Positions 3,841-55,948 are shown, counted from the stretch's first letter. The stretch is 64,000 bases of DNA from Candidatus Oxydemutatoraceae bacterium (GCA_965218975.1 OZ244717.1:338347-402346), one strand, 5' to 3'. The notes: generated from the letters alone by a model not told the origin. Translations and numbers: made by a program.

Positions 3841-5814
<1,974 letters not shown>

Positions 5815-5846
5815 CAAGAATCTCATTTAAGTTTCTTGAGTTAACT

Positions 5847-10243: not shown

Positions 10244-10247
10244 GACA

Positions 10248-10538: not shown

Positions 10539-10749
10539 TGTTCTTCCGTTCTTCATAACTCCCGCGAGAGCCTAGGTGATGAACGTTTGTCCGGGCAGTG
10601 CTCGCATAAAAATGTTCTTTGACAATCAGTATCTTACAGGTGACATCTTGCAAAAAAAATACAAGAAACACGACAGTGTTATGATGCATTTAGACCTCTC
10701 GAAATGGCTTTCTATAATCTTTGCCAAACAATAGGTTATGGGATGTGCT
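10539..10749 (+). promoter_or_regulatory. CRISPR leader with a candidate promoter (TTAGAC 10690-10695, 17 nt spacer, TATAAT 10713-10718)
   Basis: An AT-rich 211 bp non-coding stretch lies between cas2 and the first repeat. A perfect -10 hexamer sits 32 bp upstream of repeat 1, with a weak -35 at 17 bp spacing. Confidence 0.5.
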
Positions 10750-22051: not shown

Positions 22052-23202
22052 GCTACTGCTACTCCTTCACCAAACTGCCGTTCAAACGCAAGAGCGGCAA
22101 GCATAATATCCTCCTCTGTGGTAAACCGGCCTAGGCTAATACGGACCGCCTGAAGCGCCGACAAAGGCGGTTGTCCGAGGGCCGTTAAAACATGAGACGG
22201 TTCAACCCCTCGTGACGAACAGGCAGAACCCGTTGAAATCGCCACGCTCCCTTCAAGCCCGGCAATTACTTCATCTCCGGATATCCCCGGAAACGACACA
22301 TTTAAACTTCCCGGTACACGTTGATATTTGTGCCCGTTCAGTTGAAGCCCTGGCGCGCTTTTCTGCAGTAACTGCCATAGCCGGGAAGTCAGTTTCCTGA
22401 TACGTAACGAATCCTTTTCTGTCTCATTCAACGCAATTTCACATGCCGCACCAAAGCCAACAACGAGATGTACGGGCAAGGTGCCGGGACGTAAGCCGCG
22501 CTCCTGACCACCTCCTGTAGCAACCGGCCCGATGCGATCAAAAGTATCGTTGTGGACATAGAGGACCCCAATCCCCATCGGGCCATATACTTTGTGCGAG
22601 GATAACGACAACAGGTCGATTCCAAGCGAATCGACATCAATTCCTATTTTTCCGGCGGCTTGGGTTGCATCCGTATGCATTAACGCACCATGCTCATGGG
22701 CAATCGACGCAATCTCGGCAACCGGATGAACAACTCCAATTTCGTTATTAACCAGCATAGCGGATACTATCGCAGTCTTATCGCTGATCGCATCTTGCAT
22801 TTCGTCCATATCCATAATGCCGTCCGGATTCACCCCGATCTTGCGGATAGGAACTCCATCCAAACCCAATGCTCGAACTGTTTCCAAAACTGCCGGGTGC
22901 TCGGTAGCTACAGTAATAATCTCGTTACGGCCAGTGCTTCTCTTGATCGTGCCTCGAAGCGCAATGTTGCAGGATTCCGTTGCGCCGGAAGCAAAAATAA
23001 TTTCTTGGTCGTCTGCGCCTAACAGGGCAGCTACCTGAGCACGACCTTCAGCTACGGCCCGCGCCGCATTCCATCCATAGGCATGATGGATTGCATGGGG
23101 ATTCCCAAAACGCTCTTGCAGAAAAGGCTGCATGGCATCTCGAACCCGGGGGTCAAGCGGAGTGGTGGCCTGGTAGTCCAGATACACCGGTGCAGAAGCC
23201 AT
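22048..23202 (-). CDS. Cysteine desulfurase (NifS/IscS/DndA class, PLP-dependent)
   Basis: VYLDYQATTPLDPRV is at the N-terminus. The PLP-lysine motif is SSHKVYGPMGIGVLYV and the active-site cysteine loop is STGSACSS. The probable start is the ATG at 23202 (MASAPVYLDY), 4 nt after the upstream stop; the listed ORF extends to 23274. Confidence 0.9.
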   Translation of the reverse strand: MASAPVYLDYQATTPLDPRVRDAMQPFLQERFGNPHAIHHAYGWNAARAVAEGRAQVAALLGADDQEIIFASGATESCNIALRGTIKRSTGRNEIITVATEHPAVLETVRALGLDGVPIRKIGVNPDGIMDMDEMQDAISDKTAIVSAMLVNNEIGVVHPVAEIASIAHEHGALMHTDATQAAGKIGIDVDSLGIDLLSLSSHKVYGPMGIGVLYVHNDTFDRIGPVATGGGQERGLRPGTLPVHLVVGFGAACEIALNETEKDSLRIRKLTSRLWQLLQKSAPGLQLNGHKYQRVPGSLNVSFPGISGDEVIAGLEGSVAISTGSACSSRGVEPSHVLTALGQPPLSALQAVRISLGRFTTEEDIMLAALAFERQFGEGVAVA

Positions 23203-23206
23203 ATGT

Positions 23207-24568
23207 TTAGTCAGTGCAATCACATGGCAACATGGCCTTGGTTTCAGTGAGCGCTTGGACTCCGCGGTCCGCAATGTTTCGGTAAGTCATCTTGCTGTTC
23301 GTTCCAAAGAAACCGACTGTACCGTCAATGCCTCGTTGTTCTGCTGTCAAATCCCGAGTGTAGGTATCCTCTATACGAGCCCACCAAGCGACATCCATCG
23401 GTGTGTTCTGCTGACTGTTAGGTAAATCTGCCTCGCATTCCGAATGAATACTCTCATAAACCTTAGTCAGGTTTGATGTTCCCTTGAGAAAACAGTAAAC
23501 ACAATTGGACAGATGCCCGGTCGCGGGGAGTTTCAATTCAAAATCCTTGTTTTTCCGCCAGAATGCCTTAACGTCTTCTTTTTTTACACACATGTCTGAA
23601 AGCGGCATATAGACATGTTCTCCTTCATACTCCCGAACCTCAGAACTGCCCGAGATTCTCGCTTCGACACGTTGCACACGTGCCTCTTCATCTCCCCTCA
23701 ACCCGATAAAAGCGACATATTGCACTCCACCCTCGCCAAATACAGCATTCCCCCCATACGCTTTCCCATCCAAGAGCTTACTGTCCATGGCGTCTGATGC
23801 TGTCGAAAAATCCTTATAACGTTGCTCCGGACGACATACCGGCTGTGACATCACAAATTTCTTCTTGGCCAGAAAAATATCTCTTGGGACCCCGCCATTA
23901 TTGCGACGGTGGCGTTGATAAAGCGTTTCCTCATCAACCTGGGGCTTATTCTCCCAATGGCCAAGACGAGGAATGATTTTTTTGCAGGCCAGCCAGTCGC
24001 GCAGAAACATTCGTGTTGTCTCAAGTTTCAGAGTTGCTGTGCAGGTCCGGCGGAACTGGTTGGGAACATACCCTGACCACGACAACATCTCCTCAAAGAC
24101 CTCGCCCCTCCAGCAGTAACCATCCGGGTTATTTTCCGAACGAGGCTTGGCATTCACTAGCCGATAGGAAGGCAAACGAGTCCAGTCGCCGTTGCGCACA
24201 TCTTCATAGGTTTGATACTCGATCAGAAAAAATGGAATTCCGTAGCAAGATTCTGCTCGTTTCTTGCATTGGGCTACAAAGTCATAGGTGGCCGGATGTT
24301 CGGCAGCAGTATTGTTAAAGAGTATGACATCACCGCGCTCGGCCTTTAGTACACGGTTTTCCAGCAGAGTAAACAAAAGCATTCCGCTGGATCGACCGCC
24401 GGAGAATTTGACAACGTGAGGAAAATTCTCGTGCCTTTTAGACCGATATCGAAACTGATACTCGAACTCCGGATCGTATTTTTTTGGTTTGCGAAGGCGT
24501 TTCGAAACTACTAGCTTGGGAATTCCTTTTACAGAATGTTTAACAAGATTTTCTACAACGGTCTGCAT
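23207..24568 (-). CDS. PAPS-reductase-fold PP-loop ATP pyrophosphatase (DndC/SspD-like class)
   Basis: The PP-loop is VVKFSGGRSSGMLLF, followed by LFNNTAAEHPATYDF, the CysH/PAPS_reduct pattern SGGxxS...NT..E.P.T..F. C-terminal cysteines are NCVYCFLKG and a terminal LPCDCTD. The gene sits directly upstream of a cysteine desulfurase. Confidence 0.75.
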   Translation of the reverse strand: MQTVVENLVKHSVKGIPKLVVSKRLRKPKKYDPEFEYQFRYRSKRHENFPHVVKFSGGRSSGMLLFTLLENRVLKAERGDVILFNNTAAEHPATYDFVAQCKKRAESCYGIPFFLIEYQTYEDVRNGDWTRLPSYRLVNAKPRSENNPDGYCWRGEVFEEMLSWSGYVPNQFRRTCTATLKLETTRMFLRDWLACKKIIPRLGHWENKPQVDEETLYQRHRRNNGGVPRDIFLAKKKFVMSQPVCRPEQRYKDFSTASDAMDSKLLDGKAYGGNAVFGEGGVQYVAFIGLRGDEEARVQRVEARISGSSEVREYEGEHVYMPLSDMCVKKEDVKAFWRKNKDFELKLPATGHLSNCVYCFLKGTSNLTKVYESIHSECEADLPNSQQNTPMDVAWWARIEDTYTRDLTAEQRGIDGTVGFFGTNSKMTYRNIADRGVQALTETKAMLPCDCTD

Positions 24569-25781: not shown

Positions 25782-26275
25782 TCATGCTACCAGTTTCTCA
25801 AACGTTACGGTCTTCCCAACCATGGCCTTAAACAGGTCATCCGGTTTGTCTTGTGTATCACGAGCAACATTGTCTTCATTCAGGCGAAAGGTGAACTCGT
25901 TGACGTACTGCCGGCAATGCTTCTTGCTCCAATTGTGGTAAACACCATTGAAGCTGCGTTTGATGAGCAACCATACAGACTCGACCCCGTTTGGTATGAG
26001 CCGTCCCGTTCACATACTCTCTGGCCGAATGGTTGACCTTTGCCTTTATACCCCCTGTAATCATCGGTGTAAGGAGTAGAGCCAAGCTCAATGTGCTCGC
26101 GGAATGGCATTGCTGGTCGTTTCATGGTCCTCGGCCCGTATCGGCATGGCCTTTATATGGCCGCCACGCTCCTGCATCCCCAGCACGGCCCGTTCGTCTA
26201 CCGATCCTCGTCCAGCTTTCAGCTTCTTGTCCATGTGCTTGTTCTTTCATTTACGGGCATCCATGAGCTTGTTGT
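25782..26275 (-). pseudogene. IS1595-family transposase remnant (5'-truncated, multiple frameshifts)
   Basis: Pieces in three frames match the C-terminal ~160 aa of the transposase at 16906-17826. Examples are KKLKAGRGS..AVLGM, PYTDDYRGYKG, HSAREYVNG and SFNGVYHNWSKKHCRQYVNEFTFRLNEDNV....DDLFKAMVGKT.T.E.LVA. The DNA is clearly diverged from the intact copy. Confidence 0.8.
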
Positions 26276-26560
26276 GCTCAAAAAGACTTAGCGTTTTAGC
26301 GTGTTTTCTAGACATCTTTCTTGTTCCTACAGAATATGAATTAATGCCTTTGAAGCCCCGCAACTTTGAAGAATATGGGCTAGTGATTATACACGCTTCG
26401 CTTCTGCTCTCCCGCTTCTCTCCTTACCTTTCTGCACAGGAGGCATGTCAACAGATGAGCCAACGACATGCCCTTCAAACTACCTCAATCGGTCGCAAGG
26501 CAGTGCCTTATTGGTCGTTCCCCCGTTCGCGGGTGCATAAGCTCAGAAACATTTGAAACC

Positions 26561-27040
26561 GTTTTGTGTTTGGTGGCAGATTGTCGGCGGATTGTGCCGG
26601 ATTATTGGTGGATTGTTGGTAGGTTGTGCCGGATTATTAGCAAAGTGCATGTCGTCCATGACGCGACTGGGTTCTGTCAACAAGCCCCAGCCCCGACATC
26701 CTTGTCGGGTCGTTCGCCGCTGAAAACCGTTCGGTTTTCCGGGCGCGGCTTACCCATGACGCGACTGGGTTCTGTCAACAAGCCCCAGCCCCGACATCCT
26801 TGTCGGGTCGTTCGCCGCTGAAAACCGATCGGTTTTCCGGGCGCGGCTTACCCATGACGAGACTGGGTTCTGTCAACAAGCCCCAGCCCCGACATCCCTG
26901 TCGGGTCGTTCGCCGCTGAAAACCGTTCGGTTTTCCGGGCGCGTCTCACCCGACAACGGACAGAAAGCACCGATCCGAATGTTGCTGCCGAATGCTTCCC
27001 CGGAAGCCCTTCAAGAATCCCATTTAGGGTGGCATCGTAC
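26561..27040 (+). repeat. Mosaic intergenic repeat cluster, copy 1: G/T-rich head, three ~97 bp units, conserved tail
   Basis: The head (26561-26657) has GGATTGT/GGATTAT motifs every 9-12 bp. Units start at 26658, 26755 and 26853. Each contains the hairpins CCCGACA-TCCT-TGTCGGG and GAAAACCG-TT-CGGTTTTC. The tail AAAGCACCGATCCGAATGTT...CCCATTTAGGGTGGCATCGTAC runs 26964-27040. Confidence 0.9.
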
Positions 27041-27166
27041 ATTCTTGACAAGCCCGCCGCTTTCCCCTAACCTGAGCTTAAGTTACGAGGCGCAGGCCTT
27101 ATTCTTTACTCGCCCGCGGGGAGGATCCTCGCGGGGACCTTCCAGCGGTAACAACAGGAGACTATT

Positions 27167-27376
27167 ATGGAAATTACTGCTGAGAAATTTGAGCAGGAGC
27201 TTCAAAAGCTTGAACAGAGGCTTGAGCGAAAGTTTGATACGAAGCTTGATACGAAGTTTGATAAGCTCGAAGCCAAACTCGACTCGGTGAAGACTTGGTT
27301 TGTCGGTTTAATGGTCACTACCGTTTTAGTCGTGACCGCGTTGATGACAACATTCGTCAACATTAACATGAACTAA
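27167..27376 (+). CDS. Small coiled-coil protein with a C-terminal transmembrane anchor (69 aa; DUF1640-like pattern by recollection)
   Basis: An AGGAG RBS lies 7-8 nt upstream. A heptad-like region, EQELQKLEQRLERKFDTKLDTKFDKLEAKLDS, is followed by the hydrophobic helix WFVGLMVTTVLVVTALMTTFV. The gene is flanked on both sides by the mosaic repeat clusters. Confidence 0.6.
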   Translation: MEITAEKFEQELQKLEQRLERKFDTKLDTKFDKLEAKLDSVKTWFVGLMVTTVLVVTALMTTFVNINMN

Positions 27377-27487: not shown

Positions 27488-27851
27488 TCGTTCGCCGCTG
27501 AAAACCGTTCGGTTTTCCGGGCGCGGCTCACCTGTTTTGTGTTTGGTGGTAGATTGTCGGCGGATTGTGCCGGGTTGTTGGTGGATTGTTGGTAGGTTGT
27601 GCCGGATTATTAGCAAAGTGCATGTCGTCCATGACGAGACTTCGTGCTGTTAATGAACCCCAGCCCCGACATCCTTGTCGGGTCGTTCGCCGCCCGCTAA
27701 AAAAGGTGGCACCGTTCGGTTTTCCGGGGCGCGGCTCACCCATGACGAGACTTGGTTCTGTCAATGAGCCCCAGCCCCGACATCCCTGTCGGGTCGTTCG
27801 CCGCTGAAAACCCCGCTGAAAACCGTTCAGTTTTCCGGGCGCAGCTCACCC
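27488..27851 (+). repeat. Mosaic intergenic repeat cluster, copy 2: partial unit, head, two units, no tail
   Basis: The family and orientation match 26561-27040. The head sequence TGTTTTGTGTTTGGTGGTAGATTGTCGGCGGATTGTGCCGGGTTGTTGG... is followed by CATGACGAGACTT...CCCCGACATCCTTGTCGGG...TTCGGTTTTCCGGG units. Confidence 0.9.
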
Positions 27852-30455: not shown

Positions 30456-30701
30456 AAAGGCCAAACCAAAGCGGCCTTGCGGGTAGCCGCCGAAGAATAT
30501 CCCGCATACCCGGGATACACCGCCGCTTAGTCCATCATGCTAGGAAAGTGCGCATAAGGCAAAAATTGCCATTCAAAGATTGCATGGGGCTGTCATAATT
30601 TACACACTTGATGTCGCGCGGGTGTCCTCCGCGGGATTGATCCGACCGCGAGGCAAAGTCAGGCTCCTGCGGGAGCTTCAAAGCAGCCGAGACACAACGG
30701 A

Positions 30702-31295
30702 TCAGCAATTCTTAAAGTTCTTCTTAATACATTCGCGAGCAAGGTCTTGCGCTTTAGAGATATCGGCAGAGGTCATTTTTTTTGCCATCGTCTCTCTTAA
30801 TTTTCTTCCGTCCTCAGCCCCGTTTGCGGAAGCGATGTTCGCCCACATATGGGCATAAACATTATCCTTTATTAACCCCCGACCTAAAGCATACATCAAA
30901 CCCAGATTATTTTGCGCGGACGCATGTCTCTGTCCGGCGGCGAGCCTGTACCATTTCACTGCCTCGCGATAATCTTGAGGAACACCGTCTCCGTTGCGAT
31001 ACATCACACCCAGACTGTGCTGCGCGTCCGCATGTCCCTGTTCGGCGGCGAGCCTGTACCATTTCACTGCTTGCCGACCGTCTTGAGGAACACCGTGTCC
31101 GTTGTCATACATCACACCCAGATTGTACTGCGCGGACGCATGTCCCTGTTCGGCGAGAGGCATCCACTTTTGCAGGGCGGTCGCAAAGTCTCGTTTTAGA
31201 GCGACATCCAACCCTTTCTGAAAATCAGCAGAATAGGCAAACGACCCGAATAAGAGTGCGAACAGTAAAATAGAAATGATAGACAGAGTTCTCAT
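30702..31295 (-). CDS. Sel1-repeat (TPR-like) protein with signal peptide
   Basis: The N-terminal hydrophobic leader is MRTLSIISILLFALLFGSFAYSA. It is followed by Sel1 units of the form AQ.NLG.MY.NG.GVPQD...AVKWYRLAAEQGHA.AQ. Confidence 0.85.
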   Translation of the reverse strand: MRTLSIISILLFALLFGSFAYSADFQKGLDVALKRDFATALQKWMPLAEQGHASAQYNLGVMYDNGHGVPQDGRQAVKWYRLAAEQGHADAQHSLGVMYRNGDGVPQDYREAVKWYRLAAGQRHASAQNNLGLMYALGRGLIKDNVYAHMWANIASANGAEDGRKLRETMAKKMTSADISKAQDLARECIKKNFKNC

Positions 31296-31456
31296 CCTTG
31301 GATTGTAATCCGAATAATGTTAACGGCGAAAAGATTGTATGGAGCCGCTGTAGTTTACACACTCGGTGTTGCGCGGGTGTCCTCTGCGGGATTGACCCGC
31401 CCGCGAGGCAAAGTCAGGCTCCTGCGGGAGCTTCAAAGCAGCCGAGACACAACGGG

Positions 31457-32374
31457 TCAACAATTCTCAAAGTTCTTTACGATGCATTCGCGAGCAAGGT
31501 CTTGCGCTTTGGAGATATCGGCAGGGATCATTTGTTCCGCCATTATCTCTTTTAATTTTTCGCCGCTTTCATCGCCGTTGATGGAGCCGATGCTTCCCCA
31601 CATATAAGCATAAATATTATCTTTTGATAACCCTTTACCCAGAGCGTACATCAGGCCAAGTTTGGTCTGTGCTCTCGCATCCCCCTGTTCGGCAGCGAGT
31701 TGGTACCACTTTACCGCTTGCCGATTATCTTGGGGAATGCCGTCTCCGTTATAGTACATTGATGCAATATTGTACTGTGCCTTTGCATGCCCCTGTTCGG
31801 CGGCAAGTTGGTACCACTTTGCTGCTTGCCGACTGTCTTGAGAAATGCCGTCGCCGTTGTGATACATCACTGCCAGATTGGTCTGTGCGGTAACTCGTCC
31901 CTGTTCGGCGGCTAACCTGTACCATTTCACTGCTTGTCGACTGTCTTGAGGAATGCCGTCGCCGTTGTCGTACATCAACGCCAGATTAGTCTGTGCTAGC
32001 CCTTCTCCTTGTTCAGCAGCTCGCTCGTACCACCTCATCGCCTCGCGATAATCTTGAGGAACACCGTCGCCGTTGTAGTACATCCATGCCAGATTGGTCT
32101 GCGCTTTTACGTCTCCTTGTTCGGCGGCGAGCCTGTACCATTTCACTGCTTGCCGATCGTCTTGAGGAACGCCGTCGCCGTTGTCGTACATCACGCCCAG
32201 ATTGCACTGAGCCCTTGCATCTCCCTGCTCGGCGAGAGGCATCCACTCTTGCAGGGCGGTCGCAAAGTCTCGTTTTAGAGCGGCATCCAACCCTTTCTGA
32301 AAATCAGCGGAGTAAGCGGACACACCAAACAGGAGCGTATGCAGTAAAACAGAAACGACAAACAGAGATTTCAT
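31457..32374 (-). CDS. Sel1-repeat (TPR-like) protein with signal peptide, longer paralog
   Basis: The leader and Sel1 unit consensus match 30702-31295, with about seven units. The N-terminal 40 aa are nearly identical to the neighbouring paralog. Confidence 0.85.
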   Translation of the reverse strand: MKSLFVVSVLLHTLLFGVSAYSADFQKGLDAALKRDFATALQEWMPLAEQGDARAQCNLGVMYDNGDGVPQDDRQAVKWYRLAAEQGDVKAQTNLAWMYYNGDGVPQDYREAMRWYERAAEQGEGLAQTNLALMYDNGDGIPQDSRQAVKWYRLAAEQGRVTAQTNLAVMYHNGDGISQDSRQAAKWYQLAAEQGHAKAQYNIASMYYNGDGIPQDNRQAVKWYQLAAEQGDARAQTKLGLMYALGKGLSKDNIYAYMWGSIGSINGDESGEKLKEIMAEQMIPADISKAQDLARECIVKNFENC

Positions 32375-40179: not shown

Positions 40180-40591
40180 ATATTTCATTGACCAATGTTT
40201 GGCGTATCCTCATTCGAAAACTCGTGGCAGTAGCCTGATTATTACTTTAGCATTACTGTTGATTTTGACACCTTTAGCGCTCGGCAGCATGTACCGATTG
40301 CAATATCAGTCTCAAACCTTATATGCGCTAGACAACAAACGCCGCCTGCAAACCGAAGTCAGGCAGCAACTCGTTCTAGCCGCCGCAATTGCGCAGACGC
40401 TGCCGGCAAATATCTCAGTAGCCAATTCAAATTGGCAAATCACCGCCTTAGCCAATACCGCCTCAACTCAAACCATCAGTTATTTTCAGCTCAGCGGGCA
40501 AGTTGAAAATGCTTCCGGTCGCGTTACCGCTCACGCCCTGTACCGACGCGGCATTGATCCGGCAATACGGATGTTTCAGTTTGCTCAATAG
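40169..40591 (+). CDS. PilX-like minor pilin (by position)
   Basis: The 140 aa protein has an N-terminal hydrophobic helix (SSLIITLALLLILTPLALG). It overlaps the pilW stop. Confidence 0.45.
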   Translation: MHYKYFIDQCLAYPHSKTRGSSLIITLALLLILTPLALGSMYRLQYQSQTLYALDNKRRLQTEVRQQLVLAAAIAQTLPANISVANSNWQITALANTASTQTISYFQLSGQVENASGRVTAHALYRRGIDPAIRMFQFAQ

Positions 40592-41006
40592 CTCGAATAA
40601 CGCGAAATACGGTTGCCGTATTGCAGCCTTCTCTTTGCTTGAACTGCTGTTTGCAATGGTCATCAGCGCCATTATTTTATCGTTGGCGATCAACACTTAT
40701 GATCGTTATCAAATAAAAATTCAATATTTAGACGGGCGCAATAAACTGCTTGAAATCATGCAGAAACAGCATCACCATTTTGCCGAACATTTAACTTTCA
40801 CCGACCAACTCGAATCTCTAGGGTTTTCCTCGATTGATCATGCCGTCTTATCCGATCACCAACATTTTCGCATCCGTGCCGCACCTTGCCAAACCGTGAT
40901 TGCTCAATGTGTCCGCTTAACCGCAACTGCAACCGATCCCACAAACGATGTTGACACTTTAACTTTGGACTCCATGGGGCGCCGAACTCCAGCAGATATC
41001 TGGTAG
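40581..41006 (+). CDS. Minor pilin, PilE/FimU-like
   Basis: The prepilin-like N-terminus is AAFSLLELLFAMVISAIILSLAI. The likely TTG start at 40581 is in frame with the listed ORF 40503-41006. Confidence 0.55.
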   Translation: MLNSSNNAKYGCRIAAFSLLELLFAMVISAIILSLAINTYDRYQIKIQYLDGRNKLLEIMQKQHHHFAEHLTFTDQLESLGFSSIDHAVLSDHQHFRIRAAPCQTVIAQCVRLTATATDPTNDVDTLTLDSMGRRTPADIW

Positions 41007-41070
41007 ATTGAACAAGTGAAAACAGGATTTATTAGTTTAAGGTAATTGCTTAATTTTTTATATATTTTGC

Positions 41071-41144
41071 ACGATGCCACCCTAAATGGGATTCTTGAAT
41101 AGCTTCGGGGGAAGCGTTCGGCAGAAAGCACCGATCCGAATGTT
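41071..41144 (+). repeat. Solo fragment of the mosaic-repeat tail: the arm is inverted relative to loci 26964-27040 and 52470-52546, and the core is in the same orientation
   Basis: ACGATGCCACCCTAAATGGGATTCTTGAA..GCTTCGGGGGAAGCGTTCGGCAG is the reverse complement of the tail arm. It is followed by the shared core AAAGCACCGATCCGAATGTT. Confidence 0.85.
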
Positions 41145-41162
41145 ATGGTCCTATACATATTG

Positions 41163-41191
41163 TTGACATGCTGTTGTAAAGTCAATATACT
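41163..41191 (+). promoter_or_regulatory. Sigma70-type promoter (TTGACA, 17 nt spacer, TATACT) upstream of the lipoprotein gene
   Basis: A perfect -35 lies at 41163-41168 and a near-consensus -10 at 41186-41191 with exactly 17 nt between them. The element is 85 nt upstream of the ATG at 41277. Confidence 0.6.
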
Positions 41192-41276: not shown

Positions 41277-42803
41277 ATGAAAGAAATAACCCCGCGTCGT
41301 TTCCAGCGTGCCAGATTAACCGCCTTTCTCCTAATCAGCGGCTTTGCGTTAAGCGGTTGTTTTGATTCGGGCGGAAGCGGTTCAAGCGGCGCTTCGGTTG
41401 AGCGGTTTTTATACACGAGTAGCAATAGCAGTAGCGGGAATGAAATTATACGGATGGGTATTGCTTCCGACGGCACACTCAGTAGTAGCACCGTAACTCG
41501 AATACCGACCCATGGTTTTGGCGATGCCGACGATGACGACTTTGACGGGCAACATTCGTTGCATATCGTGCATAATTATCTGCTTGCCGTCAATGCCGGG
41601 GAAGATCCTGCATTTTCGGACATGAAATTTAATGGCGAGTTTGCCGCTCGCACCAGCGGCAACGGAACTATATCGGTATTTCGTTTTGAAGATGACGCTT
41701 TAACCCAAGTGCCGCAGGGAGAGGATTCTGCAAGCAGTAATGTGGAGTCGCACGGAATCAGACCGGTGAGTCTGACATCGGCAATAATCGACGATGTAAC
41801 ATGGGTATTAGTCGCAAACCAATACGACAATCCATTTTGTAAGTGGTTTGACGGCAAGGAGCCGCAATGTCCTGCTATTCCGTCGCCGCGTGAGGATGAC
41901 AAACCGAGTATTGATGCGTTTAAATTCAATCCCGAGGACGGACAATTGACTTATTCCGGCGAAATGGACCTTTTTAATTTCGGCGACAACGGCGGGCCGT
42001 CACAAGTTTCTTTTAGTCCGGACCGGAGCAAAGTTGCGGCAACGATGTGGGGAATACCGTTTCTAAGTTCCACAGGAGTGGAAACGATAGATATATTGCG
42101 GAGTACAACTGTCAATACTTTCCGTGAAGGTGGGGTGTTCGTATGGGATGTGGAAGTACAGGATTCCACTCAGGGTTCCAATTTGATGCTTATCAAGCGC
42201 CGCTTTTGGTTTGAACCGGGGGTTTCGGGTAGTATCGGGTTTGTTTGGAGTCCGGATAGCCGGTATCTTTATGTAACAAACTTCAATGTCCCGATCAACG
42301 GGGATAGGAACTTCAGCGTAGTTTCGTTGGAAGATACGTCTTCGGAACTGACTCCTGTCGATCAGTCGGGAACACGCGACAATGACGGCGCGATGCAGGT
42401 GCGACATGCCGATGAGGCCTGTTGGGCATGGCTTGAACCCGACGGGAGCAGGCTTTATACGGCAAGTTTTAGCGGAAACATCGTGTCGTTCTTTGACGTG
42501 ACACCCGAGACCGGCATGATTGATCACAATTCGTATTATCCTCGTCGTGACCAAGCGCTCCCATTTCCGATCGCTCCTTCTTTAAGAATATCCGAAGCTC
42601 CGGATACAAAGGATATTTACGTTTTATCGAACGGAACATTTCTCTATGTTTCCGGCGCATTAAATTCGCACACGATTTCAATTTATGCGGTGAACAGCAA
42701 GGGAACTTTAGTGGAAATAAATTCCTCGCCGTTTAGCGTCCCGTTTCCGGATGCAAGGACGGATAAGCGCGAAGAAGCATTTTTGGGTCTTGTCGGCTAC
42801 TAA
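41277..42803 (+). CDS. Lipoprotein with a beta-propeller (lactonase-like 7-bladed) repeat pattern
   Basis: The lipobox is LISGFALSGC. Recurrent blade-like segments are present (TISVFRFEDD, VSFSPDRSKV, VWSPDSRYLYVTNF, DGSRLYTASFSGNIVSFFDV, FLYVSGALNSHTISIYAV). Confidence 0.65.
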   Translation: MKEITPRRFQRARLTAFLLISGFALSGCFDSGGSGSSGASVERFLYTSSNSSSGNEIIRMGIASDGTLSSSTVTRIPTHGFGDADDDDFDGQHSLHIVHNYLLAVNAGEDPAFSDMKFNGEFAARTSGNGTISVFRFEDDALTQVPQGEDSASSNVESHGIRPVSLTSAIIDDVTWVLVANQYDNPFCKWFDGKEPQCPAIPSPREDDKPSIDAFKFNPEDGQLTYSGEMDLFNFGDNGGPSQVSFSPDRSKVAATMWGIPFLSSTGVETIDILRSTTVNTFREGGVFVWDVEVQDSTQGSNLMLIKRRFWFEPGVSGSIGFVWSPDSRYLYVTNFNVPINGDRNFSVVSLEDTSSELTPVDQSGTRDNDGAMQVRHADEACWAWLEPDGSRLYTASFSGNIVSFFDVTPETGMIDHNSYYPRRDQALPFPIAPSLRISEAPDTKDIYVLSNGTFLYVSGALNSHTISIYAVNSKGTLVEINSSPFSVPFPDARTDKREEAFLGLVGY

Positions 42804-44844: not shown

Positions 44845-47433
44845 ATGCCGCACCTTTTTGAAGCATTAGAACATTCTGCTGCCAGCTGGCGTAAGAAGGG
44901 TTATCCTTGTGACGCCTATCCGCTCATAGGCGAAATTCTTGCTTACCAAACGGAAAAGCAGGAGGACAGGTCAACCCCGAAGTTTCTGCGCGAACCCCAA
45001 TTCCTTGCCTTGGAGGTTTACTGGTATATCCGCCTTATACGGGAAACCCCTCATATCATAGACCTTTACAAGCATTATCACGGCAGCAATAAAGAAGATT
45101 TTTTTGATGCGCTTGGAATCTCAGTATCAAGAGATGCTTTGGAGTTTGCAGAAATAGACGGAATGATTGAAAAAATTAAAAGGGATGAGGGTTTTGTCAA
45201 AGACAAAAGAATTCAAGCGTTGCACGAAGCCGTCAAATTAGACTATCCGAGCTACATTTTTGCTTTGGCTATGGGTGCGGGCAAAACCGTTCTGATAGGG
45301 ACGATTATCGCAACCGAGTTTGCAATGTCGCTGCGTTATCCCAAAGATAGATTTATGAAAAATGCCCTCGTTTTTGCTCCGGGCACGACAATCATAGAAA
45401 GTTTGCGCGAACTCAGCGATATATCTTATGAGCAGATTTTGCCGCCCGGCCTTAACCGCGATTTCCTTGCTAATTTGAAGATTGAATTTCCGGGCAAGGA
45501 AAAAGACATACAGGCGCAGAGAAACAGCAGTTATAACTTGATTGTTACCAATGTTGAAAAAATCAACCTGCGTGCCAGGCAGCGGGAGAATCAAACACAA
45601 TTATCTTTTGAACACGAAGAAGCACAGGCGAATCTACGGCTTCAAAAGATCGCAAGCCTGCCCGGCCTCGGGGTTTTTTCAGATGAAGCGCACCACACAT
45701 ACGGAAACACCTTTGACAAACTCAAACGCGTGAGGGAAACCATCAACTACATACACGAGCAGACTGAAATAGTGGCGGTGATCAACACCACCGGAACGCC
45801 TTACTATAAAAAGCAACCCTTAAAGGAGGTGGTTGTCTGGTACGGGCTTGGCGACGGCATCAAAGATAATATCCTCAAAGGCCTCAATAACGGCATTCAT
45901 CTATACGATATCGGAGAGCAGCCGGAGGAAGAGGTTTTTAGGGACATCATTCGAGAATTTTGGGAGGGCTACGGAAATGTTTCTCTTCCCAACGGCGCAC
46001 CGGCAAAGATTGCCTTTTATTTCAAAACGCAACAGCATCTGGTAAGTTCAAAACAACAAATAGAGAAGGCGATGACGGAAATCGGGCAACCTGTTTCCCA
46101 TATATTAGTTAATACACAACAATCCGATGCAGCGCAGATCGACGAGTTTAAGCGTCTCAATAATCCCGAAACCCAGAAGCGAGTTATTCTGTTGATCGGC
46201 AAAGGGGTTGAAGGTTGGAACTGCCCCAGCCTGTTTTCCTGCGCACTGATAAAGGAGCAGACGAGTAAGAATTACGTTTTGCAAGCATCAACGAGATGTT
46301 TGCGGCAGGTTCCGGGCAATAGCCTTCCGGCGAAGATATTTCTAGATTCCGTCAACGCAACGATTCTAGACAAAGAATTACAAAATAACTTCGGCACCGA
46401 TCTTGATAGACTTAGCGGGGAAACGGGAGACAAAGAAACCATCACTCTGCGTATTCTTAAAACAGAACTGCCGAAACTGGAAATCACCCGCACTGTTAAA
46501 AGAGCTATAAGAAAAGGGGAAATAAACAGAAATATACGTTTGGAGAAACCGAAGGCGCAAAAACTGCCCGTTGTATTGCGCAGCATTTGCACCCCTGATT
46601 TCAGCGGTCCAAAGGAAATATTAATGCCGACAGGACAAACGAAGGAGCTACCGGCGGGAAGACGTGTTACCGGTTGCCATACTGCCGCTTGGAGAATCGC
46701 TTCACGATACCATGTACCGGTTCTACCGATCTTGAAAAAACTCAAAAGCTTTTATCCGAAAGGAGTAATGCCGGATAGTCATTTATACGGGCTTTTTCAG
46801 CAGGTTGAACGGCAACAAACAAGTTACACAACGGTTGAAGAAAAAGTAACCGAGGCGATGGCGTTGATCCGAGTTCAGGATGAGAACGGAGAAGGCATCT
46901 TTGATAAGGATGAAAAGGGGGTTTTTGTTCACCGTTTGCGGTTGCTTAAAAGGACTGTTGAACGTATGGAAGAAGGCGGATTGTTTGCAGAGAGGGAAAA
47001 TTATGAGGACCAGCACGAGTTGAGTTTTCACTATACCCCCTACAACTTTGACAGCAAACCGGAACGTTCCCTGTTCCGAAGGATTTTATCCATGTTGAAT
47101 ACAGAACCTTATGACGTGGAAGTGTTTCTGTTCACCGGTGGGCTAACAGACCCGAAGAAAACTGATTTCCATTTTGAATATCTGGGCGAAGACAAGCGGT
47201 ATCATCGCTACTTTCCGGATTTTGTGATTGCCAAAAAGACCGGTGAGTTTTATATTGTCGAGGTGAAAGAAGATAAGCGCGAGGATAAAACTGTGGAGGC
47301 CAAGAAAAAGGCAGTTGAGAAACTGCAGAATTTGCCAACGAACAAGTTCGGATACCATATTATCTATGCTTCTACAGCGACGCTAGGCGTGAGAGAAACC
47401 ACGCCGATTCAGAATTGGATACAAAAAAACTAA
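44845..47433 (+). CDS. Type III restriction enzyme Res-like subunit (SF2 DEAH helicase plus C-terminal PD-(D/E)xK nuclease)
   Basis: Walker A is ALAMGAGKTVLIG and the DEAH box is VFSDEAHHTYG. The helicase C-terminal part includes QASTRCLR. The C-terminal nuclease motif is YFPDFVIAKKTGEFYIVEVKEDK. Confidence 0.8.
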   Translation: MPHLFEALEHSAASWRKKGYPCDAYPLIGEILAYQTEKQEDRSTPKFLREPQFLALEVYWYIRLIRETPHIIDLYKHYHGSNKEDFFDALGISVSRDALEFAEIDGMIEKIKRDEGFVKDKRIQALHEAVKLDYPSYIFALAMGAGKTVLIGTIIATEFAMSLRYPKDRFMKNALVFAPGTTIIESLRELSDISYEQILPPGLNRDFLANLKIEFPGKEKDIQAQRNSSYNLIVTNVEKINLRARQRENQTQLSFEHEEAQANLRLQKIASLPGLGVFSDEAHHTYGNTFDKLKRVRETINYIHEQTEIVAVINTTGTPYYKKQPLKEVVVWYGLGDGIKDNILKGLNNGIHLYDIGEQPEEEVFRDIIREFWEGYGNVSLPNGAPAKIAFYFKTQQHLVSSKQQIEKAMTEIGQPVSHILVNTQQSDAAQIDEFKRLNNPETQKRVILLIGKGVEGWNCPSLFSCALIKEQTSKNYVLQASTRCLRQVPGNSLPAKIFLDSVNATILDKELQNNFGTDLDRLSGETGDKETITLRILKTELPKLEITRTVKRAIRKGEINRNIRLEKPKAQKLPVVLRSICTPDFSGPKEILMPTGQTKELPAGRRVTGCHTAAWRIASRYHVPVLPILKKLKSFYPKGVMPDSHLYGLFQQVERQQTSYTTVEEKVTEAMALIRVQDENGEGIFDKDEKGVFVHRLRLLKRTVERMEEGGLFAERENYEDQHELSFHYTPYNFDSKPERSLFRRILSMLNTEPYDVEVFLFTGGLTDPKKTDFHFEYLGEDKRYHRYFPDFVIAKKTGEFYIVEVKEDKREDKTVEAKKKAVEKLQNLPTNKFGYHIIYASTATLGVRETTPIQNWIQKN

Positions 47434-48389: not shown

Positions 48390-49007
48390 AAGGCGTGGGA
48401 ATCCAAAAAATAAAGGCAAAACAGTTTACAGATTTTTCTCATGCGCCTATTCCAAACCCGGAACGTCAAAAATACCAAGCAAAGAGAGAGAACATTCTGA
48501 ATAGTCGGAAGCAGGGGTCGCTGATAGATGATGGCCTGAGAGATGCCGAGCTGGTATCTGCCCCCGACTATCGTTTCTACTATCACTTTGACGATCTAAA
48601 CGGCAAAAACAGTAAAATGATGATAGCAGATTGGGAAATACAAGCGTTATACAGAAATTGTTTGCGAGGGAAAAATAAGCAACAAGCGCTTGAGGATGTG
48701 CGCAAAAAATACTCTGGCGGGCCGACAGACTCGAACAAAACCGATTTCCATTTTTGAATATCTAGGCGAAGACAAGCAGGATCATCGCTACTTTCCGGAT
48801 TTTGTGATTGTCAAAAAGACCGGCGAGTTTTATATTGTCGAGGTGAAATCGAAAGATGAGCGCGGGGATGAAACCGTAGAAGCAAAGAAGAAAGCGGTGG
48901 AAAAGTTACAAAATCTACAAGCTGATAAGGTTAAATATAATATCATTTACACAAAGACGAACACAATAGGGGTTGAGGACATTGACATCAATACGATTGT
49001 GGATTAG
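48362..49007 (+). pseudogene. Frameshifted gene whose 3' part duplicates the Res C-terminal PD-(D/E)xK domain
   Basis: ORFs 48362-48757 and 48690-49007 join if one T of the T5 run at 48751-48755 is removed. The paralogous site at ~47170 has T4. The joined product ...GGPTDSNKTDFHFEYLGEDKQDHRYFPDFVIVKKTGEFYIVEVK...VEAKKKAVEKLQNL parallels Res ...GGLTDPKKTDFHFEYLGEDKRYHRYFPDFVIAKKTGEFYIVEVK...VEAKKKAVEKLQNL. Confidence 0.7.
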
Positions 49008-51911: not shown

Positions 51912-52546
51912 CTTTGTGTTCGGTGTGGGGTTGTCGGTGGATTGTGCCGGATTGTCGGCGGATTGTTGGCGGATTGTTGGCAAAGTGCCTGTCGTCCATG
52001 ACGCGACTTAGTTCTGTCAACAAGCCCCAGCCCCGACGTCCTTGTCGGGTCGTTCGCCGCTGAAAACCGTTCGGTTTTCCGGGCGCGTCTCACCCTGTCG
52101 TCCATGGCGAGACTTGGTTCTGTCAATGAACCCCAGCCCCGACGTCCTTGTCGGGTCGTTCGCCGCTGAAAACCGTTCGGTTTTCCGGGCGCGTCTCACC
52201 CGTTTTGTGTTTGGTAGCAGATTATTGGCAAAGTGCTTGGTGCAGGTTTGTCGGCGGATTGTGCCGGGTTGTTGGCAAAGTGCCTGTCGTCCATGACGAA
52301 ACTTAGTTCTGTCAATAAACTCCAGCCCCGACATCCTTGTCGAGTCGTTCGCCGCTGAAAACCAGTAGGTTTTCCGGGCGCGGCTCACCCAGCCCCGACA
52401 TCCTTGTCGGGTCGTTCGCCGCTGAAAACCGATCGGTTTTCCGGGCACGTCTCACCCGGCAACGGACAGAAAGCACCGATCCGAATGCTACTGCCGCACG
52501 CTTCCCCAGAAGCTCTTCAAAAATCCCATTTAGGGTGGCATCGTAC
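51912..52546 (+). repeat. Mosaic intergenic repeat cluster, copy 3: head, two units, second head, full and truncated units, tail
   Basis: The family and orientation match 26561-27040. The tail AAAGCACCGATCCGAATGCT...CCCATTTAGGGTGGCATCGTAC runs 52470-52546. It is followed by TTGGCA (52553-52558), a 17 nt spacer and TATATT (52576-52581). Confidence 0.9.
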
Positions 52547-52745
52547 ACGGTGTTGGCAAGTGTTGTCGTTTAATGTATATTAGCAACCTGCTACAGCACT
52601 ACGTGTCCGCCCTGTCGGGCGGCCCGTGAATATAAAACCGTTCGAAAATAAGCGGGAATACTTCTTTACGTAGTGTTTGTAGCAATCGCCTGACTCCTTA
52701 AGTCAGGCGATTAAGCAGATTTAATTTAATCTATGGAGAAATATA

Positions 52746-54761
52746 ATGAAACTATTAATTCGAACGGCTACTCTTTTAATGGCCTTTGCTTTTATTCTCA
52801 CCTCGACAACGCAAGCGCAAAACGCCCCGGCGGATCAAGCGGAGTTCGAGAGGCTGGTTGCAGGTATGCAGATAGAGGCTGCTGTTGGTAGCACCATGAC
52901 CACACTGCAATTCCCGAATCCAGGGCGTATCCTAGAAATTAGTGAAGAAGGAAACTTCCTTGGTAATTATCAGTACACAAATACCGGCGACAATACGGGA
53001 ATGCTCACTTACACCTACGACGCGAGCGGTAACAATGCGGCTATGGAGCAAACCGAGGGTACACTCACGTTCACTTCGGCGACAATGGGAACATTCGAGA
53101 GTACCTATTTCTATGTCACAGCGAGCGAACCCCGTGTGATGAGCAGTGGCACATTTGAAATCGTCGACGCCGAACCTCCAGCTGTGTTTGCCCCACTGGA
53201 TCAAGCGGAGTTCGAGAGGCTGGTTGCAGGTATGCAGATAGAGGGGATTGATGCTCGCGGCAGCATGGGCACACTGCAATTCCCGAATCCAGGGCGTATC
53301 CTGGAAATTGTGGAAGAAGGAAACTTCTTTGGTGATTATCAGTACACAAATACCGGCGACAATACGGGAATGCTCACTTACACCTACGACGCGAGCGGTA
53401 ACAATGCGGCTATGGAGCAAACCGAGGGTACACTCACGTTCACTTCGGCGACAATGGGAACATTCGAGAGTACCTATTTCTATGTCACAGCGAGCGAACC
53501 CCGTGTGATGAGCAGTGGCACATTTGAAATCGTCGACGCCGAACCTCCAGCTGTGTTTGCCCCACTGGATCAAGCGGAGTTCGAGAGGCTGGTTGCAGGT
53601 ATGCAGATAGAGGCTGCTGTTGGTAGCACCATGACCACACTGCGATTCCCGGACTCGGGCCGTATCCTAGAAATTAGTGAAGAAGGAAACTTCCTTGGTA
53701 ATTATCAGTACACAAATACCGGCGACAATACGGGAATGCTCACTTACACCTACGACGCGAGCGGTAACAATGCGGCTATGGAGCAAACCGAGGGTACACT
53801 CACGTTCACTTCGGCGACAATGGGAACATTCGAGAGTACCTATTTCTATGTCACAGCGAGCGAACCCCGTGTGATGAGCAGTGGCACATTTGAAATCGTC
53901 GACGCCGAACCTCCAGCTGGGTTCGCCCCGCAGGATCAAGCGGAGTTCGAGAGGCTGGTTGCAGGTATGCAGATAGAGGGGATTGATGCTCGCGGCAGCA
54001 TGGGCACACTGCAATTCCCGAATCCAGGGCGTATCCTGGAAATTGAAGAAGAAGGAATCTTCCTTGGTAATTATCAGTACACAAATACCGGCGGCAATAC
54101 GGGAATGCTCACTTACACCTACGACGCGACCGGTAACAATGCGGCTATGGAGCAAACCGAGACTATACTCACGTTCACTTCGGCGACAATGGGAACATTC
54201 GAGAGTACCTATTTCTATGTTGAAGCAAGCGAAACCCCCGAGGTGAACACAGGTACATTTGAAATCGTTGCTGCTCCGGTCGCCCCGGCGACTCAAGCGG
54301 AGTTCGAGAGGCTGGTTACAGGTATGCAGATAGAGGCTGCTGTTGGTAGCACCATGACCACACTGCGATTCCCGGACTCGGGCCGTATCCTAGAAATTAG
54401 TGAAGAAGGAAACTTCCTTGGTAATTATCAGTACACAAATACTACCGCCGTTTCCACCAGTGTAGGAAGCCTCACTTACACCTACGACGCGAGCGGTAAC
54501 GATCCGGCTATGGAGTACGTCACGGTCAACCTCGTGTTCACTTCGGCGACAATGGGAGCATTCGAGAGTACCTATTTCTATGTTGAAGCAAGCGAACCCC
54601 GTGTGATGAGCAGTGGCACATTTGAAATCGTCCCTATTCCTGGTAGCAGCGGTGGCGGTGGCGGCAGCGGCAGCGCGGGTTTGTGGCTGTTATTGCTACT
54701 GCTTGCATCAGTTGTCGGCAATCGCTGTGCTCCTGTCATTTTTCGGACCGGATCATCCTAG
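52746..54761 (+). CDS. Secreted tandem-repeat protein (five ~122 aa repeats) with a glycine-rich plus hydrophobic C-terminal sorting-like tail
   Basis: The signal peptide is MKLLIRTATLLMAFAFILTSTTQA. Repeat starts (DQAEFERLVAGMQIE) lie at nt 52833, 53199, 53568, 53934 and 54291. The C-terminus is GSSGGGGGSGSAGLWLLLLLLASVVGNR..., which looks GlyGly-CTERM-like. Confidence 0.85.
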   Translation: MKLLIRTATLLMAFAFILTSTTQAQNAPADQAEFERLVAGMQIEAAVGSTMTTLQFPNPGRILEISEEGNFLGNYQYTNTGDNTGMLTYTYDASGNNAAMEQTEGTLTFTSATMGTFESTYFYVTASEPRVMSSGTFEIVDAEPPAVFAPLDQAEFERLVAGMQIEGIDARGSMGTLQFPNPGRILEIVEEGNFFGDYQYTNTGDNTGMLTYTYDASGNNAAMEQTEGTLTFTSATMGTFESTYFYVTASEPRVMSSGTFEIVDAEPPAVFAPLDQAEFERLVAGMQIEAAVGSTMTTLRFPDSGRILEISEEGNFLGNYQYTNTGDNTGMLTYTYDASGNNAAMEQTEGTLTFTSATMGTFESTYFYVTASEPRVMSSGTFEIVDAEPPAGFAPQDQAEFERLVAGMQIEGIDARGSMGTLQFPNPGRILEIEEEGIFLGNYQYTNTGGNTGMLTYTYDATGNNAAMEQTETILTFTSATMGTFESTYFYVEASETPEVNTGTFEIVAAPVAPATQAEFERLVTGMQIEAAVGSTMTTLRFPDSGRILEISEEGNFLGNYQYTNTTAVSTSVGSLTYTYDASGNDPAMEYVTVNLVFTSATMGAFESTYFYVEASEPRVMSSGTFEIVPIPGSSGGGGGSGSAGLWLLLLLLASVVGNRCAPVIFRTGSS

Positions 54762-54786
54762 AAGGTTGAGATATAGCGCATAAAAT

Positions 54787-54824
54787 CCGTATTGTCGCCT
54801 AGAAATAGGCGGCAATACGGTTTA
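54787..54824 (+). terminator. Rho-independent terminator candidate after the repeat-protein gene
   Basis: The hairpin CCGTATTGTCGCC-TAGAAATA-GGCGGCAATACGG is followed by TTTA, 26 nt after the stop codon. Confidence 0.6.
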
Positions 54825-54860
54825 TCAGTGTATGCTGCTTTAAGAGAGACCTGCGCAAGT

Positions 54861-55119
54861 GTTTTTGTGTGGGTCACTCTCGGCCGGAGGCAAAGTGCTT
54901 AGTCCAGGTTTGTCGGCGGGTTGTGCCGGGTTGTTGGCAAAGTACATGTCGTCCTTGACGAGACTTGGTGCTGTCAATGAACTCCAGCCCCGACGTCCTT
55001 GTCGAGTCGTTCGCCGCTGAAAACCAGTAGGTTTTCCGGGCGCGTCTCACCCAGCCCCGACGTCCTTGTCGAGTCGTTCGCCGCTGAAAACCAGTAGGTT
55101 TTCCGGGCGCGTCTCACCC
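54861..55119 (+). repeat. Mosaic intergenic repeat cluster, copy 4: head, one full and one truncated unit, no tail
   Basis: The family and orientation are the same. The CAGCCCCGACGTCCTTGTCGAGTCGTTCGCCGCTGAAAACCAGTAGGTTTTCCGGGCGCGTCTCACCC sequence is present twice. Confidence 0.9.
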
Positions 55120-55180
55120 TTACAAAATTTTGCGAGTCGGGTATGATTAGCATATTGTTAAACTCGTTAGGTGAAATATT

Positions 55181-55948
55181 GTGATTGCCGTTATTTCTCC
55201 CGCAAAAACTTTAGACTTTAAAACACCTCCTTCAACCAAGATATATTCGGAACCGATCTTTTTGGATGATAGCGCCAAGCTGATACGGAGGTTGAAAAAA
55301 ATGACTGTGGAAGACTTATCCGGTTTGATGGATGTAAGCGAACGAATCGCGCAGTTGAATTATGCGCGGTATCGATCATGGAACAAGCCTTTCACACCGA
55401 ATAATGCAAAGCAGGCAATCCTTGCTTTCAAAGGCGACGTTTATGCCGGGCTTGATGCTGAAAGTTTCACCAATGCCGATTTCAAGTTTGCGCAAAAACA
55501 CTTGTGTATCTTGTCGGGCCTTTACGGCATTTTGCGCTCATTGGATTTAATTCAGCCGTACCGTTTGGAAATGGGAACACGTTTGGATGTCGACGGTAAT
55601 AGGAATTTGTATCAATTTTGGGACAATCGTGCTACCGATTGGCTGAACGGTCTTCTGCATGTCGAGAGAAGCCCGGCGCTGATTAATCTTGCTTCCAATG
55701 AATACTTCAAATCAATTAAACTTGATAGAATCAACGCAAGAGTTGTGACTCCGGTGTTTAAGGAGCGTAGGAAAGGAGTATTCAAGGTGATTAGCTTTTC
55801 TGCGAAAAAAGCGCGCGGGATGATGAGCCGCTATATCATCAGAAATCGGCTCCGCAACATTACCGCGATTAAACAATTCTGTGAAGCAGGTTATTGCTAT
55901 CACAAAAATTTATCCGGTCATGATACATGGGTATTTGCTCGCGGTTAA
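55181..55948 (+). CDS. yaaA: Peroxide stress protein YaaA (UPF0246/DUF328)
   Basis: It has a GTG start with an AGGTGA RBS. The N-terminus IAVISPAKTLDF and the ~255 aa size are typical of YaaA. Confidence 0.85.
   Translation: MIAVISPAKTLDFKTPPSTKIYSEPIFLDDSAKLIRRLKKMTVEDLSGLMDVSERIAQLNYARYRSWNKPFTPNNAKQAILAFKGDVYAGLDAESFTNADFKFAQKHLCILSGLYGILRSLDLIQPYRLEMGTRLDVDGNRNLYQFWDNRATDWLNGLLHVERSPALINLASNEYFKSIKLDRINARVVTPVFKERRKGVFKVISFSAKKARGMMSRYIIRNRLRNITAIKQFCEAGYCYHKNLSGHDTWVFARG

Follow-up and report, generated by a model that had tools for sequence, protein, structure and literature searches.

Two single genes for predicted envelope proteins in a gammaproteobacterial genome (Candidatus Oxydemutatoraceae bacterium), one encoding a 69-amino-acid (aa) protein and the other a 671-aa protein, are each bracketed by clusters of short direct repeats, and the upstream cluster of each pair ends next to a promoter-like site. 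This arrangement raises the question of what the clusters are and whether they serve the genes between them. We addressed it in a 64,000-nucleotide (nt) stretch of the genome, referred to here as the window, in which repeat modules were mapped with blastn and nhmmer and tandem periods with TRF. The clusters probably represent a lineage-restricted, non-coding, modular intergenic mosaic repeat of the BOX/BIME/NIME-like kind, which slippage and recombination reshape and which is tolerated as far as the edge of promoters. They have a defined module architecture, have recently expanded in tandem, concatenate whole H-(AB)n blocks, are dispersed within the genome and have no coding capacity.

The clusters are composed of four modules, designated H, A, B and T, whose order and number vary. 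All copies of H, A and B lie on the plus strand. The modules and the four clusters are as follows.

Module H (head): starts with GTTTTGTGTTTGG, continues with 4-6 GGATTGTYGGC units at an 11-nt period and ends in TTGGCAAAGTGC..TGTCGTC; 4.7-6 copies by TRF
Module A: about 32 nt, CATGACGNGACT..GTCAAYRAGCCCC
Module B: 66-67 nt, with two hairpins, CCCGAC/GTCGGG and GAAAACC/GGTTTTC
Module T (tail): about 85 nt, with the 3' terminus CCCATTTAGGGTGGCATCGTACA
26561-27041, plus strand: cluster C1, consisting of H (26561-26656), three A-B units (26657-26951; 98-nt period, 96% matches) and T (26953-27041)
27488-27851, plus strand: cluster C2, consisting of a 5'-truncated B (27488-27533), a head (27534-27629) and two A-B units, no tail
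51912-52547, plus strand: cluster C3, with the architecture H-AB-AB-H'-AB-B-T
51912-52201, plus strand: first part of C3, H (51912-51996), A-B (51997-52095) and A-B (52096-52201)
52202-52547, plus strand: second part of C3, H' (52202-52291), A-B (52292-52390), B (52391-52457) and T (52459-52547)
54861-55119, plus strand: cluster C4, consisting of H'' (54861-54953), A-B (54954-55052) and B (55053-55119), no tail

Across all module copies, nhmmer E-values ranged from 1e-14 to 1e-33, which places the repeats far above chance. TRF returned scores of 230-557 for periods of 98, 106, 111 and 67 nt, with 82-100% of positions matched. Since the 98- and 67-nt periods are not multiples of three, the arrays are non-coding. 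Adjacent tandem units are 91-100% identical, B copies are 88-100% identical and the two B copies of C4 are 100% identical. Unit number differs among the four clusters, and the B modules of both A-B units in C2 carry insertions of 12-13 nt. Minus-strand nhmmer matches to H, A and B comprised self-complementary hairpin cores only. Intergenic DNA adds up to 6.9 kb in the window, and the clusters account for approximately 26% of it; their GC content is 57-59% compared to 48% for the window.

The repeat family extends beyond the window. As a proxy query for further copies, a spurious 143-aa minus-strand open reading frame (ORF) running across C3 was used in word-indexed and exhaustive HMMER protein searches. 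They returned seven repeat-derived ORFs (P0142-P0148), all of them singletons from the same 2,081,000-bp contig and none encoded in the window. P0144 and P0145 translate a tail joined to B, and these junctions indicate that the H-(AB)n-T design recurs. The family occupies at least 11 array loci and one solo tail in this one genome, a count obtained by a protein route that reveals only loci with a called ORF. The entries P0142-P0148 in public protein collections are translations of the minus strand of the modules, and the window ORFs 52017-52448 and 26468-26821 are artefacts of the same type; in all, nine or more spurious ORFs that run over the repeats seem to have entered the annotation as proteins.

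Outside this genome, the modules were not recovered. Exact scans for a 19-mer from the B core in genome, metagenome and viral contigs yielded single matches only, in unrelated taxa. The 16 genome or metagenome loci had no further module similarity, and the viral locus showed only a weak extension over 29 positions. A 20-mer from the tail had no match in viral contigs. Similarly, blastn gave no match for either bracketed locus in plasmids or for the first locus in phages, and the repeat clusters matched no Rfam family. The closest relatives, identified by YaaA (73% and 66% protein identity), maintain yaaA-mpl synteny with different upstream genes. Their yaaA loci contain no repeats, and both relatives are too distant to define breakpoints. 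No second genome with the repeats was found in the collections searched.

The H-(A-B)n-T architecture, with n = 2-4, matches the BOX-type plan of a 5' module, a tandem middle module and a 3' module. BOX elements follow the order A-Bn-C with 0 to several tandem copies of the middle module; large copies generate spurious annotated ORFs, and copies can extend operons 5' or 3' (PMC3049150). Like BOX elements of Streptococcus pneumoniae and S. suis (boxA-boxB(n)-boxC), the window clusters are modular, non-coding and intergenic, with the middle module in tandem. However, boxA pairs with boxC, whereas head and tail in the window lack complementarity above shuffles: when the head was aligned to the reverse complement of the tail, 338 of 500 and 376 of 500 shuffles scored at least as high. 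Two further differences are that the head is itself an 11-nt tandem array and that the tail also occurs alone. The host of BOX is streptococcal and that of the window gammaproteobacterial. No sequence similarity to BOX was seen with the BOXA1R primer sequence, a 22-mer with 0 matches at up to 3 mismatches; the ERIC2 primer-site sequence was absent as well.

A second comparison is with the NIME arrays of Neisseria, in which 20-bp dRS3 inverted repeats separate RS elements of more than 100 families (PMC1797815). They are often found on both sides of surface-protein genes, have been proposed to promote recombination or exchange of the genes they flank, and are stated as not observed outside Neisseria (PMC1797815). 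The window clusters resemble them in being long intergenic mosaic arrays of short repeats with variable unit number that flank genes for predicted envelope proteins, two in this case, and the window also encodes type IV minor pilins. They differ in having few, highly similar families of units and no dRS3; the motif ATTCCCN8GGGAAT had 0 matches in the window at up to 1 mismatch.

REP/BIME elements of enterobacteria and REPINs (with RAYT transposases) share with the window short GC-rich hairpin units in mosaic intergenic clusters, a species-specific sequence and the placing of variable sites in loops instead of stems. Successive palindromic units of a BIME point in opposite directions, and a REPIN is a doublet of inverted units. 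The units in the window, in contrast, show neither alternating nor inverted arrangement, as every H, A and B copy has the same direct orientation, and the window encodes no RAYT. In Neisseria, the small Correia elements (CREE) are bounded by 51-bp terminal inverted repeats (PMC1797815) and often lie just upstream of genes, where they can create functional promoters (PMC3049150, PMC1797815). A comparable feature is the -35 hexamer of the 671-aa gene, which lies in head-like sequence. Correia elements are also associated with target duplications. The window clusters, however, have neither terminal inverted repeats nor target duplications, and the tail itself does not contain a -35. At the level of sequence, membership in the BOX, BIME and NIME families fails.

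Variation within the highly conserved B module is not evenly spread. In B, 5 of the 10 positions in the two hairpin loops are variable, compared to 6 of the 56 other positions (Fisher P = 0.008). This concentration in the loops shows a preference for retaining the stems or their sequence. Conserved stems with variable loops are also expected of a transcribed structured RNA, in which case the arrays would be parts of 5' or 3' untranslated regions (UTRs) or small RNA arrays whose hairpins stabilize, attenuate or process the neighboring mRNAs. Precedents have been summarized, with some copies of REP/BIME, ERIC, Correia and BOX elements reported to act in this way (PMC3049150). All clusters are co-oriented with neighboring plus-strand genes, and the A-B unit folds somewhat better than shuffles. 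Its fold is, however, equal on both strands (z = -2.0 on the plus strand and -2.3 on the minus strand), head and tail fold no better than shuffles, and 0 pairs in the B hairpins are changed on both sides, so that no compensatory changes are seen. In an Rfam search over the window, only CRISPR repeats passed; the best sub-threshold scores for clusters and leader were 16-24 bits, with 53-100 needed. A match to sRNA-Xcc1 was rejected at 24 bits (53 needed), with many non-canonical pairs. Furthermore, C4 follows a strong terminator-like hairpin. On this balance, we regard a role as transcribed structured RNA as distinctly improbable, while noting that a structured-UTR role is compatible with a mosaic repeat.

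The genes between the clusters, and the structures that accompany them, are listed below.

27167-27376, plus strand: ORF of 69 aa, coiled-coil at the N-terminus and hydrophobic in a C-terminal segment; AGGAG 8 nt upstream
52588-52712, plus strand: putative 5' leader of the 671-aa gene, with a 17-bp long-range stem enclosing two hairpins, followed by a 12-bp perfect hairpin (52684-52712)
52746-54761, plus strand: gene for the 671-aa protein, with a predicted signal peptide, five tandem repeats of about 122 aa, a Gly/Ser-rich stretch and a hydrophobic C-terminus
54784-54823, plus strand: terminator-like hairpin 3' of the 671-aa gene, with a 15-18-bp stem followed by TTTAT (z = -4.6)

An earlier reading of the window, referred to here as the preliminary description, had recognized two genes flanked by direct-orientation clusters, and its positions for genes, clusters and the 12-bp perfect hairpin were all reproduced. 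It had also restricted the tail to the upstream cluster of each pair, which holds for the four clusters; a third, solitary tail at 41068-41150 had escaped it. Its view that the bracketed genes encode exported proteins agrees with their sequence features, namely the signal peptide and the C-terminal transmembrane segment, but draws no support from family matches. For the 69-aa protein, no significant family match was obtained, only weak PHROG matches of the "hemolysin"-like type. The unit of about 122 aa in the 671-aa protein belongs to no Pfam family.

Comparison of the clusters with each other revealed how they pair. The heads of C1 and C2, which flank the 69-aa gene, are 97% identical, and 52227-52457 in C3 is 92% identical over 231 nt to 54889-55119 in C4, which flank the 671-aa gene. 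Between the two loci, heads are only 59-74% identical. Since likeness within brackets exceeds that between loci, the members of each bracketing pair are mutual closest relatives. Such likeness is the expected outcome of any of three events: insertion of the Campbell type, duplication and local gene conversion.

The 671-aa gene has further repeat structure of its own. Its DNA repeats have a period of 366-369 nt and are 79-97% identical; unit 1 is 97% identical to unit 3, and units 2 and 4 are 82% and 79% identical to unit 1, respectively. The unit of about 122 aa recurs at 34-52% identity in multidomain surface proteins of other genomes, together with CARDB, dockerin or fn3 domains. The C-terminus (GSSGGGGGSGSAGLWLLLLLLASVVGNR...) resembles a GlyGly-CTERM-type sorting signal, an assignment not supported by NCBIfam, which gave no match. 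The leader, folded from 52588 to the start codon (52588-52760), is considerably more stable than shuffles (z = -6.2), the arms of its long-range stem being CUGCUACAGCACUACGU and ACGUAGUGUUUGUAGCA. No Rfam family reached threshold for it; possible identities are a regulatory leader and a palindromic insertion.

Promoter-like sites were located by scanning both strands of the whole 64 kb for sigma70 consensus matches, scored out of 12. The sites next to repeat elements, together with the solo tail and the gene that follows it, are as follows.

27045-27073, plus strand: promoter-like site 4 nt after the C1 tail, with a perfect -35 TTGACA (27045-27050), a 17-nt spacer and a weak -10 TAACCT
41068-41150, minus strand: solo tail without H, A or B modules (nhmmer E-value of 1.6e-16)
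41163-41191, plus strand: promoter-like site that precedes the 508-aa gene, with the solo tail about 12 nt away, TTGACA-17-TATACT, 11/12
41277-42803, plus strand: gene for a predicted 508-aa lipoprotein, with a signal sequence ending in the lipobox LSGC and a weak beta-propeller lactonase-like match
52553-52581, plus strand: promoter-like site 6 nt after the C3 tail, TTGGCA (52553-52558)-17-TATATT (52576-52581), 10/12
55119-55147, plus strand: promoter-like site upstream of yaaA (55181-55948), CTTACA-17-TATGAT, 9/12; its first base is the last base of the tail-less C4

The tails of C1 and C3 both terminate in ...CCCATTTAGGGTGGCATCGTAC, at 27040 and 52546, and the distance of 4-6 nt from there to a -35-like hexamer, as given in the preliminary description, was confirmed for both. 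Its broader statement, that the tail sits directly on sigma70-like promoters, stands for the 52553 site with 10/12 matches; the 27045 site, with its TAACCT, fails the consensus scan (0 sites found there). The solo tail lies between a minor-pilin gene (40503-41006) and the 508-aa gene, and the site beside it is the top sigma70-like match in the whole window. Including this copy, 3/3 tails are located within approximately 12 nt of a -35-like hexamer (TTGACA, TTGGCA and TTGACA). The window contains nine distinct sites scoring at least 10/12, four of which are intergenic, and two of these four adjoin tails. The chance of two such adjacencies is about 0.005 if three tails are placed at random in the approximately 5 kb of non-repeat intergenic DNA, a rough and post hoc estimate.

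These observations bear on the possibility that the tail is a shared cis-regulatory module, that is, an upstream binding site through which an activator, a repressor or a nucleoid protein would regulate envelope-gene promoters together, with the 11-nt iterons of H, about one helical turn in length, phasing further binding. The helical-repeat period of the head and the near-invariant 3' half of the tail in its three copies agree with binding by a protein. The genes downstream of all three tails encode envelope-type proteins as predicted from sequence features: a tail-anchored 69-aa protein, a secreted 671-aa repeat protein and a lipoprotein. The geometry, however, is inconsistent. The tails of C1 and C3 point their 3' end towards the -35, 4-6 nt away, whereas the solo tail is inverted and presents its opposite end. 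A 20-nt segment within the tail, designated L (AAAGCACCGATCCGAATGTT), ends 61 nt from the -35 in C1 and C3 but 18 nt from it in the solo copy. In addition, the tail lacks palindromic symmetry, and the site next to the C1 tail was not recovered by the consensus scan. Tails are missing from the other envelope genes of the window (minor pilins, Sel1 proteins, AcrB/HlyD pump), the tail-less C4 abuts a promoter-like site as well, and the sample amounts to three tails. The preliminary proposal of a shared regulatory module for envelope proteins is thus favored by the regular placement of the tails and weakened by their geometry, and we consider it unlikely. By-eye reading of the tail and A modules for a sigma54 motif, an IHF site or a LexA box revealed none that fits the consensus.

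The segment L also distinguishes the solo tail in another respect, as it is flipped relative to the two array-linked tails. It is flanked by a short 6-bp inverted repeat, CGG(A)CAG/CTGCCG, and its position between these arms makes this a hairpin-loop inversion. A flip of this kind is produced by template switching or intramolecular recombination.

Downstream of the C3 tail, the -35 falls in a stretch that resembles the 3' end of a head, TGTTGGCAA(A)GTG..TGTCGT (matched by 5/500 shuffles). It is followed by a collinear match to the B core, AAAACCGTTCG (8/500 shuffles). The DNA after this tail, judged by these two resemblances, suggests a decayed repeat unit that was co-opted as promoter -35. 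A general version, in which a decayed unit follows every tail, is not fully upheld; it is weak for C3 (P of about 0.01-0.02) and fails for C1 and the solo tail.

Near-identical direct repeats around each gene, with the tail on the upstream side only, as after a Campbell-type insertion, are also what would be expected of a site-specific mobile cassette. The mobile unit would be either tail-promoter-gene-terminator or repeat-gene-repeat, moved by a recombinase encoded elsewhere in an integron-like or NIME/dRS3-like manner, and the B hairpins, with conserved stems and variable loops, would be the recombination sites. The flipped loop segment of the solo tail suggests hairpin extrusion in single-stranded DNA, and the clusters lie in a variable region (restriction-modification, CRISPR array, insertion sequence [IS]) with a synteny break beside yaaA-mpl. 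Integron cassettes with attC, for example VCR arrays, likewise consist of single, often small genes of unassigned function separated by structured repeats in direct orientation. In contrast to them, the window has only two bracketed genes, 24 kb apart, and its repeats are multi-module tandem arrays instead of one attC per cassette. The whole window contains four pairs of R'' (RYYYAAC) and R' (GTTRRRY), none of them in or near the clusters, and no integron integrase. A Pfam scan of the window ORFs revealed no integrase, RAYT or other recombinase within the 64 kb except that of IS1595. Terminal inverted repeats and the dRS3 motif are lacking; the ends of the clusters are not complementary above shuffles and their 15-nt flanks contain no target-site duplication, by which a miniature inverted-repeat transposable element was rejected too. 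No tRNA gene that could act as an integration site is present in the window.

Further points against a cassette come from the junctions and the distribution of the clusters. The two loci differ in how the downstream cluster starts, C2 opening on a truncated B and C4 on a head, the 24 kb between the only two brackets in 64 kb are free of H, A and B (solo tail only), and no comparator genome carries the repeats. Of the preliminary cassette proposal, the mutual nearest relationship of the flanking pairs remains; neither machinery nor defined junctions were found for it, and a site-specific cassette is in our view very improbable.

A related proposal would make the arrays a functional analogue of NIME arrays in an unrelated gammaproteobacterium. 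A recombinase or nucleoid protein would act on the B hairpins, and perhaps on the head iterons, to allow insertion, loss or exchange of tail-capped, promoter-bearing units that each carry a single surface-protein gene. Such units would have their own portable upstream element and no integron machinery. We rate this possibility low.

The evidence is best accommodated by a genome-specific mosaic repeat. Arrays would grow and shrink by slippage and unequal crossing-over, and local gene conversion would homogenize them. Each bracket would consist of near-identical direct repeats generated by recombination, through either duplication or Campbell-type insertion of a repeat-bearing segment. By way of RecA, such direct repeats would let the gene between them be lost, duplicated or replaced, a role proposed for the NIME arrays of Neisseria. 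The tail may be a separate small element that usually caps an array and can also be solitary. Its nearness to promoters might result mainly from insertions being retained no further than the -35 edge of the promoter that follows, and at the 671-aa gene a decayed head-like segment may have been co-opted as -35. We infer tolerance up to the promoter edge because the end of the tail-less C4 coincides with a promoter-like site as well. The inverted solo tail, the failed C1 promoter and the abutment of C4 fit such tolerance at least as well as regulation.

It should be noted that several points weigh against the mosaic-repeat interpretation. It is based on 64 kb of the genome and offers no mechanism by which the copies disperse. 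Selection on a protein or on an RNA structure could explain why B is so highly conserved and why its stems are spared. The location of 3/3 tails beside a -35-like hexamer and upstream of envelope-protein genes is more regular than pure tolerance predicts. Finally, the degenerate unit proposed after the C3 tail is not detected by nhmmer.

The surroundings of the clusters, as annotated with Pfam, are largely a variable and defence-rich region. A Type I-U/I-G-like CRISPR-Cas locus occupies 1087-15981, with genes for Cas3 (1087-3840), GSU0053 (4714-5814), GSU0054 (5811-8036) and a Cas4-Cas1 fusion (8522-10243). The fusion gene is followed by an array of 73 repeats with a 36-nt repeat (RF01330), within which two blocks are duplicated exactly (12480-12661 as 14352-14533, and 13269-13568 as 13917-14216). 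An IS1595-family transposase gene is present on the minus strand at 16906-17826. A second IS1595 copy (25782-26320) has decayed, with 79% identity over 210 nt and a disrupted frame, and stops about 240 nt left of C1; a 150-aa ORF on the plus strand (26104-26556) that overlaps this remnant is probably spurious. The window also contains several methylase and restriction genes and fragments.

On the minus strand, a cysteine desulfurase gene (Aminotran_5, 22048-23274) lies within 20084-24568, flanked by ORFs of 655 and 453 aa without a Pfam match; this region may be a dnd-type DNA phosphorothioation cluster in a defence island. The segments 47137-47268 and 48716-48848 are duplicates, 85% and 95% identical, of the 3' end of an 862-aa ResIII-type gene, the latter inside a short ORF (48690-49007) that carries a TnsA-like endonuclease N-terminal domain. 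They suggest partial gene duplication in a restriction locus. Other genes in the window include a resistance-nodulation-division (RND) efflux pump and a minor-pilin operon. Two adjacent Sel1-repeat genes on the minus strand (30575-32374) have a DNA period of 108 nt and a 300-nt duplication of 83% identity. Eukaryote-like Sel1 proteins, together with the small genome of 2.08 Mb, hint at a host-associated lifestyle.

If the clusters are a mosaic repeat as described, this genome provides one more species-specific example, useful for annotation, for assessing assembly quality and as a strain-typing marker. The family would be of greater importance if surface-protein genes are in fact exchanged through the action of the arrays, or if the tail acts as a portable element close to promoters. 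Should the improbable NIME-like function prove true, it would be an independent invention of a NIME-type system in a small-genome, defence-rich gammaproteobacterium with Sel1-repeat proteins, and recombination scaffolds would then be a recurrent solution.

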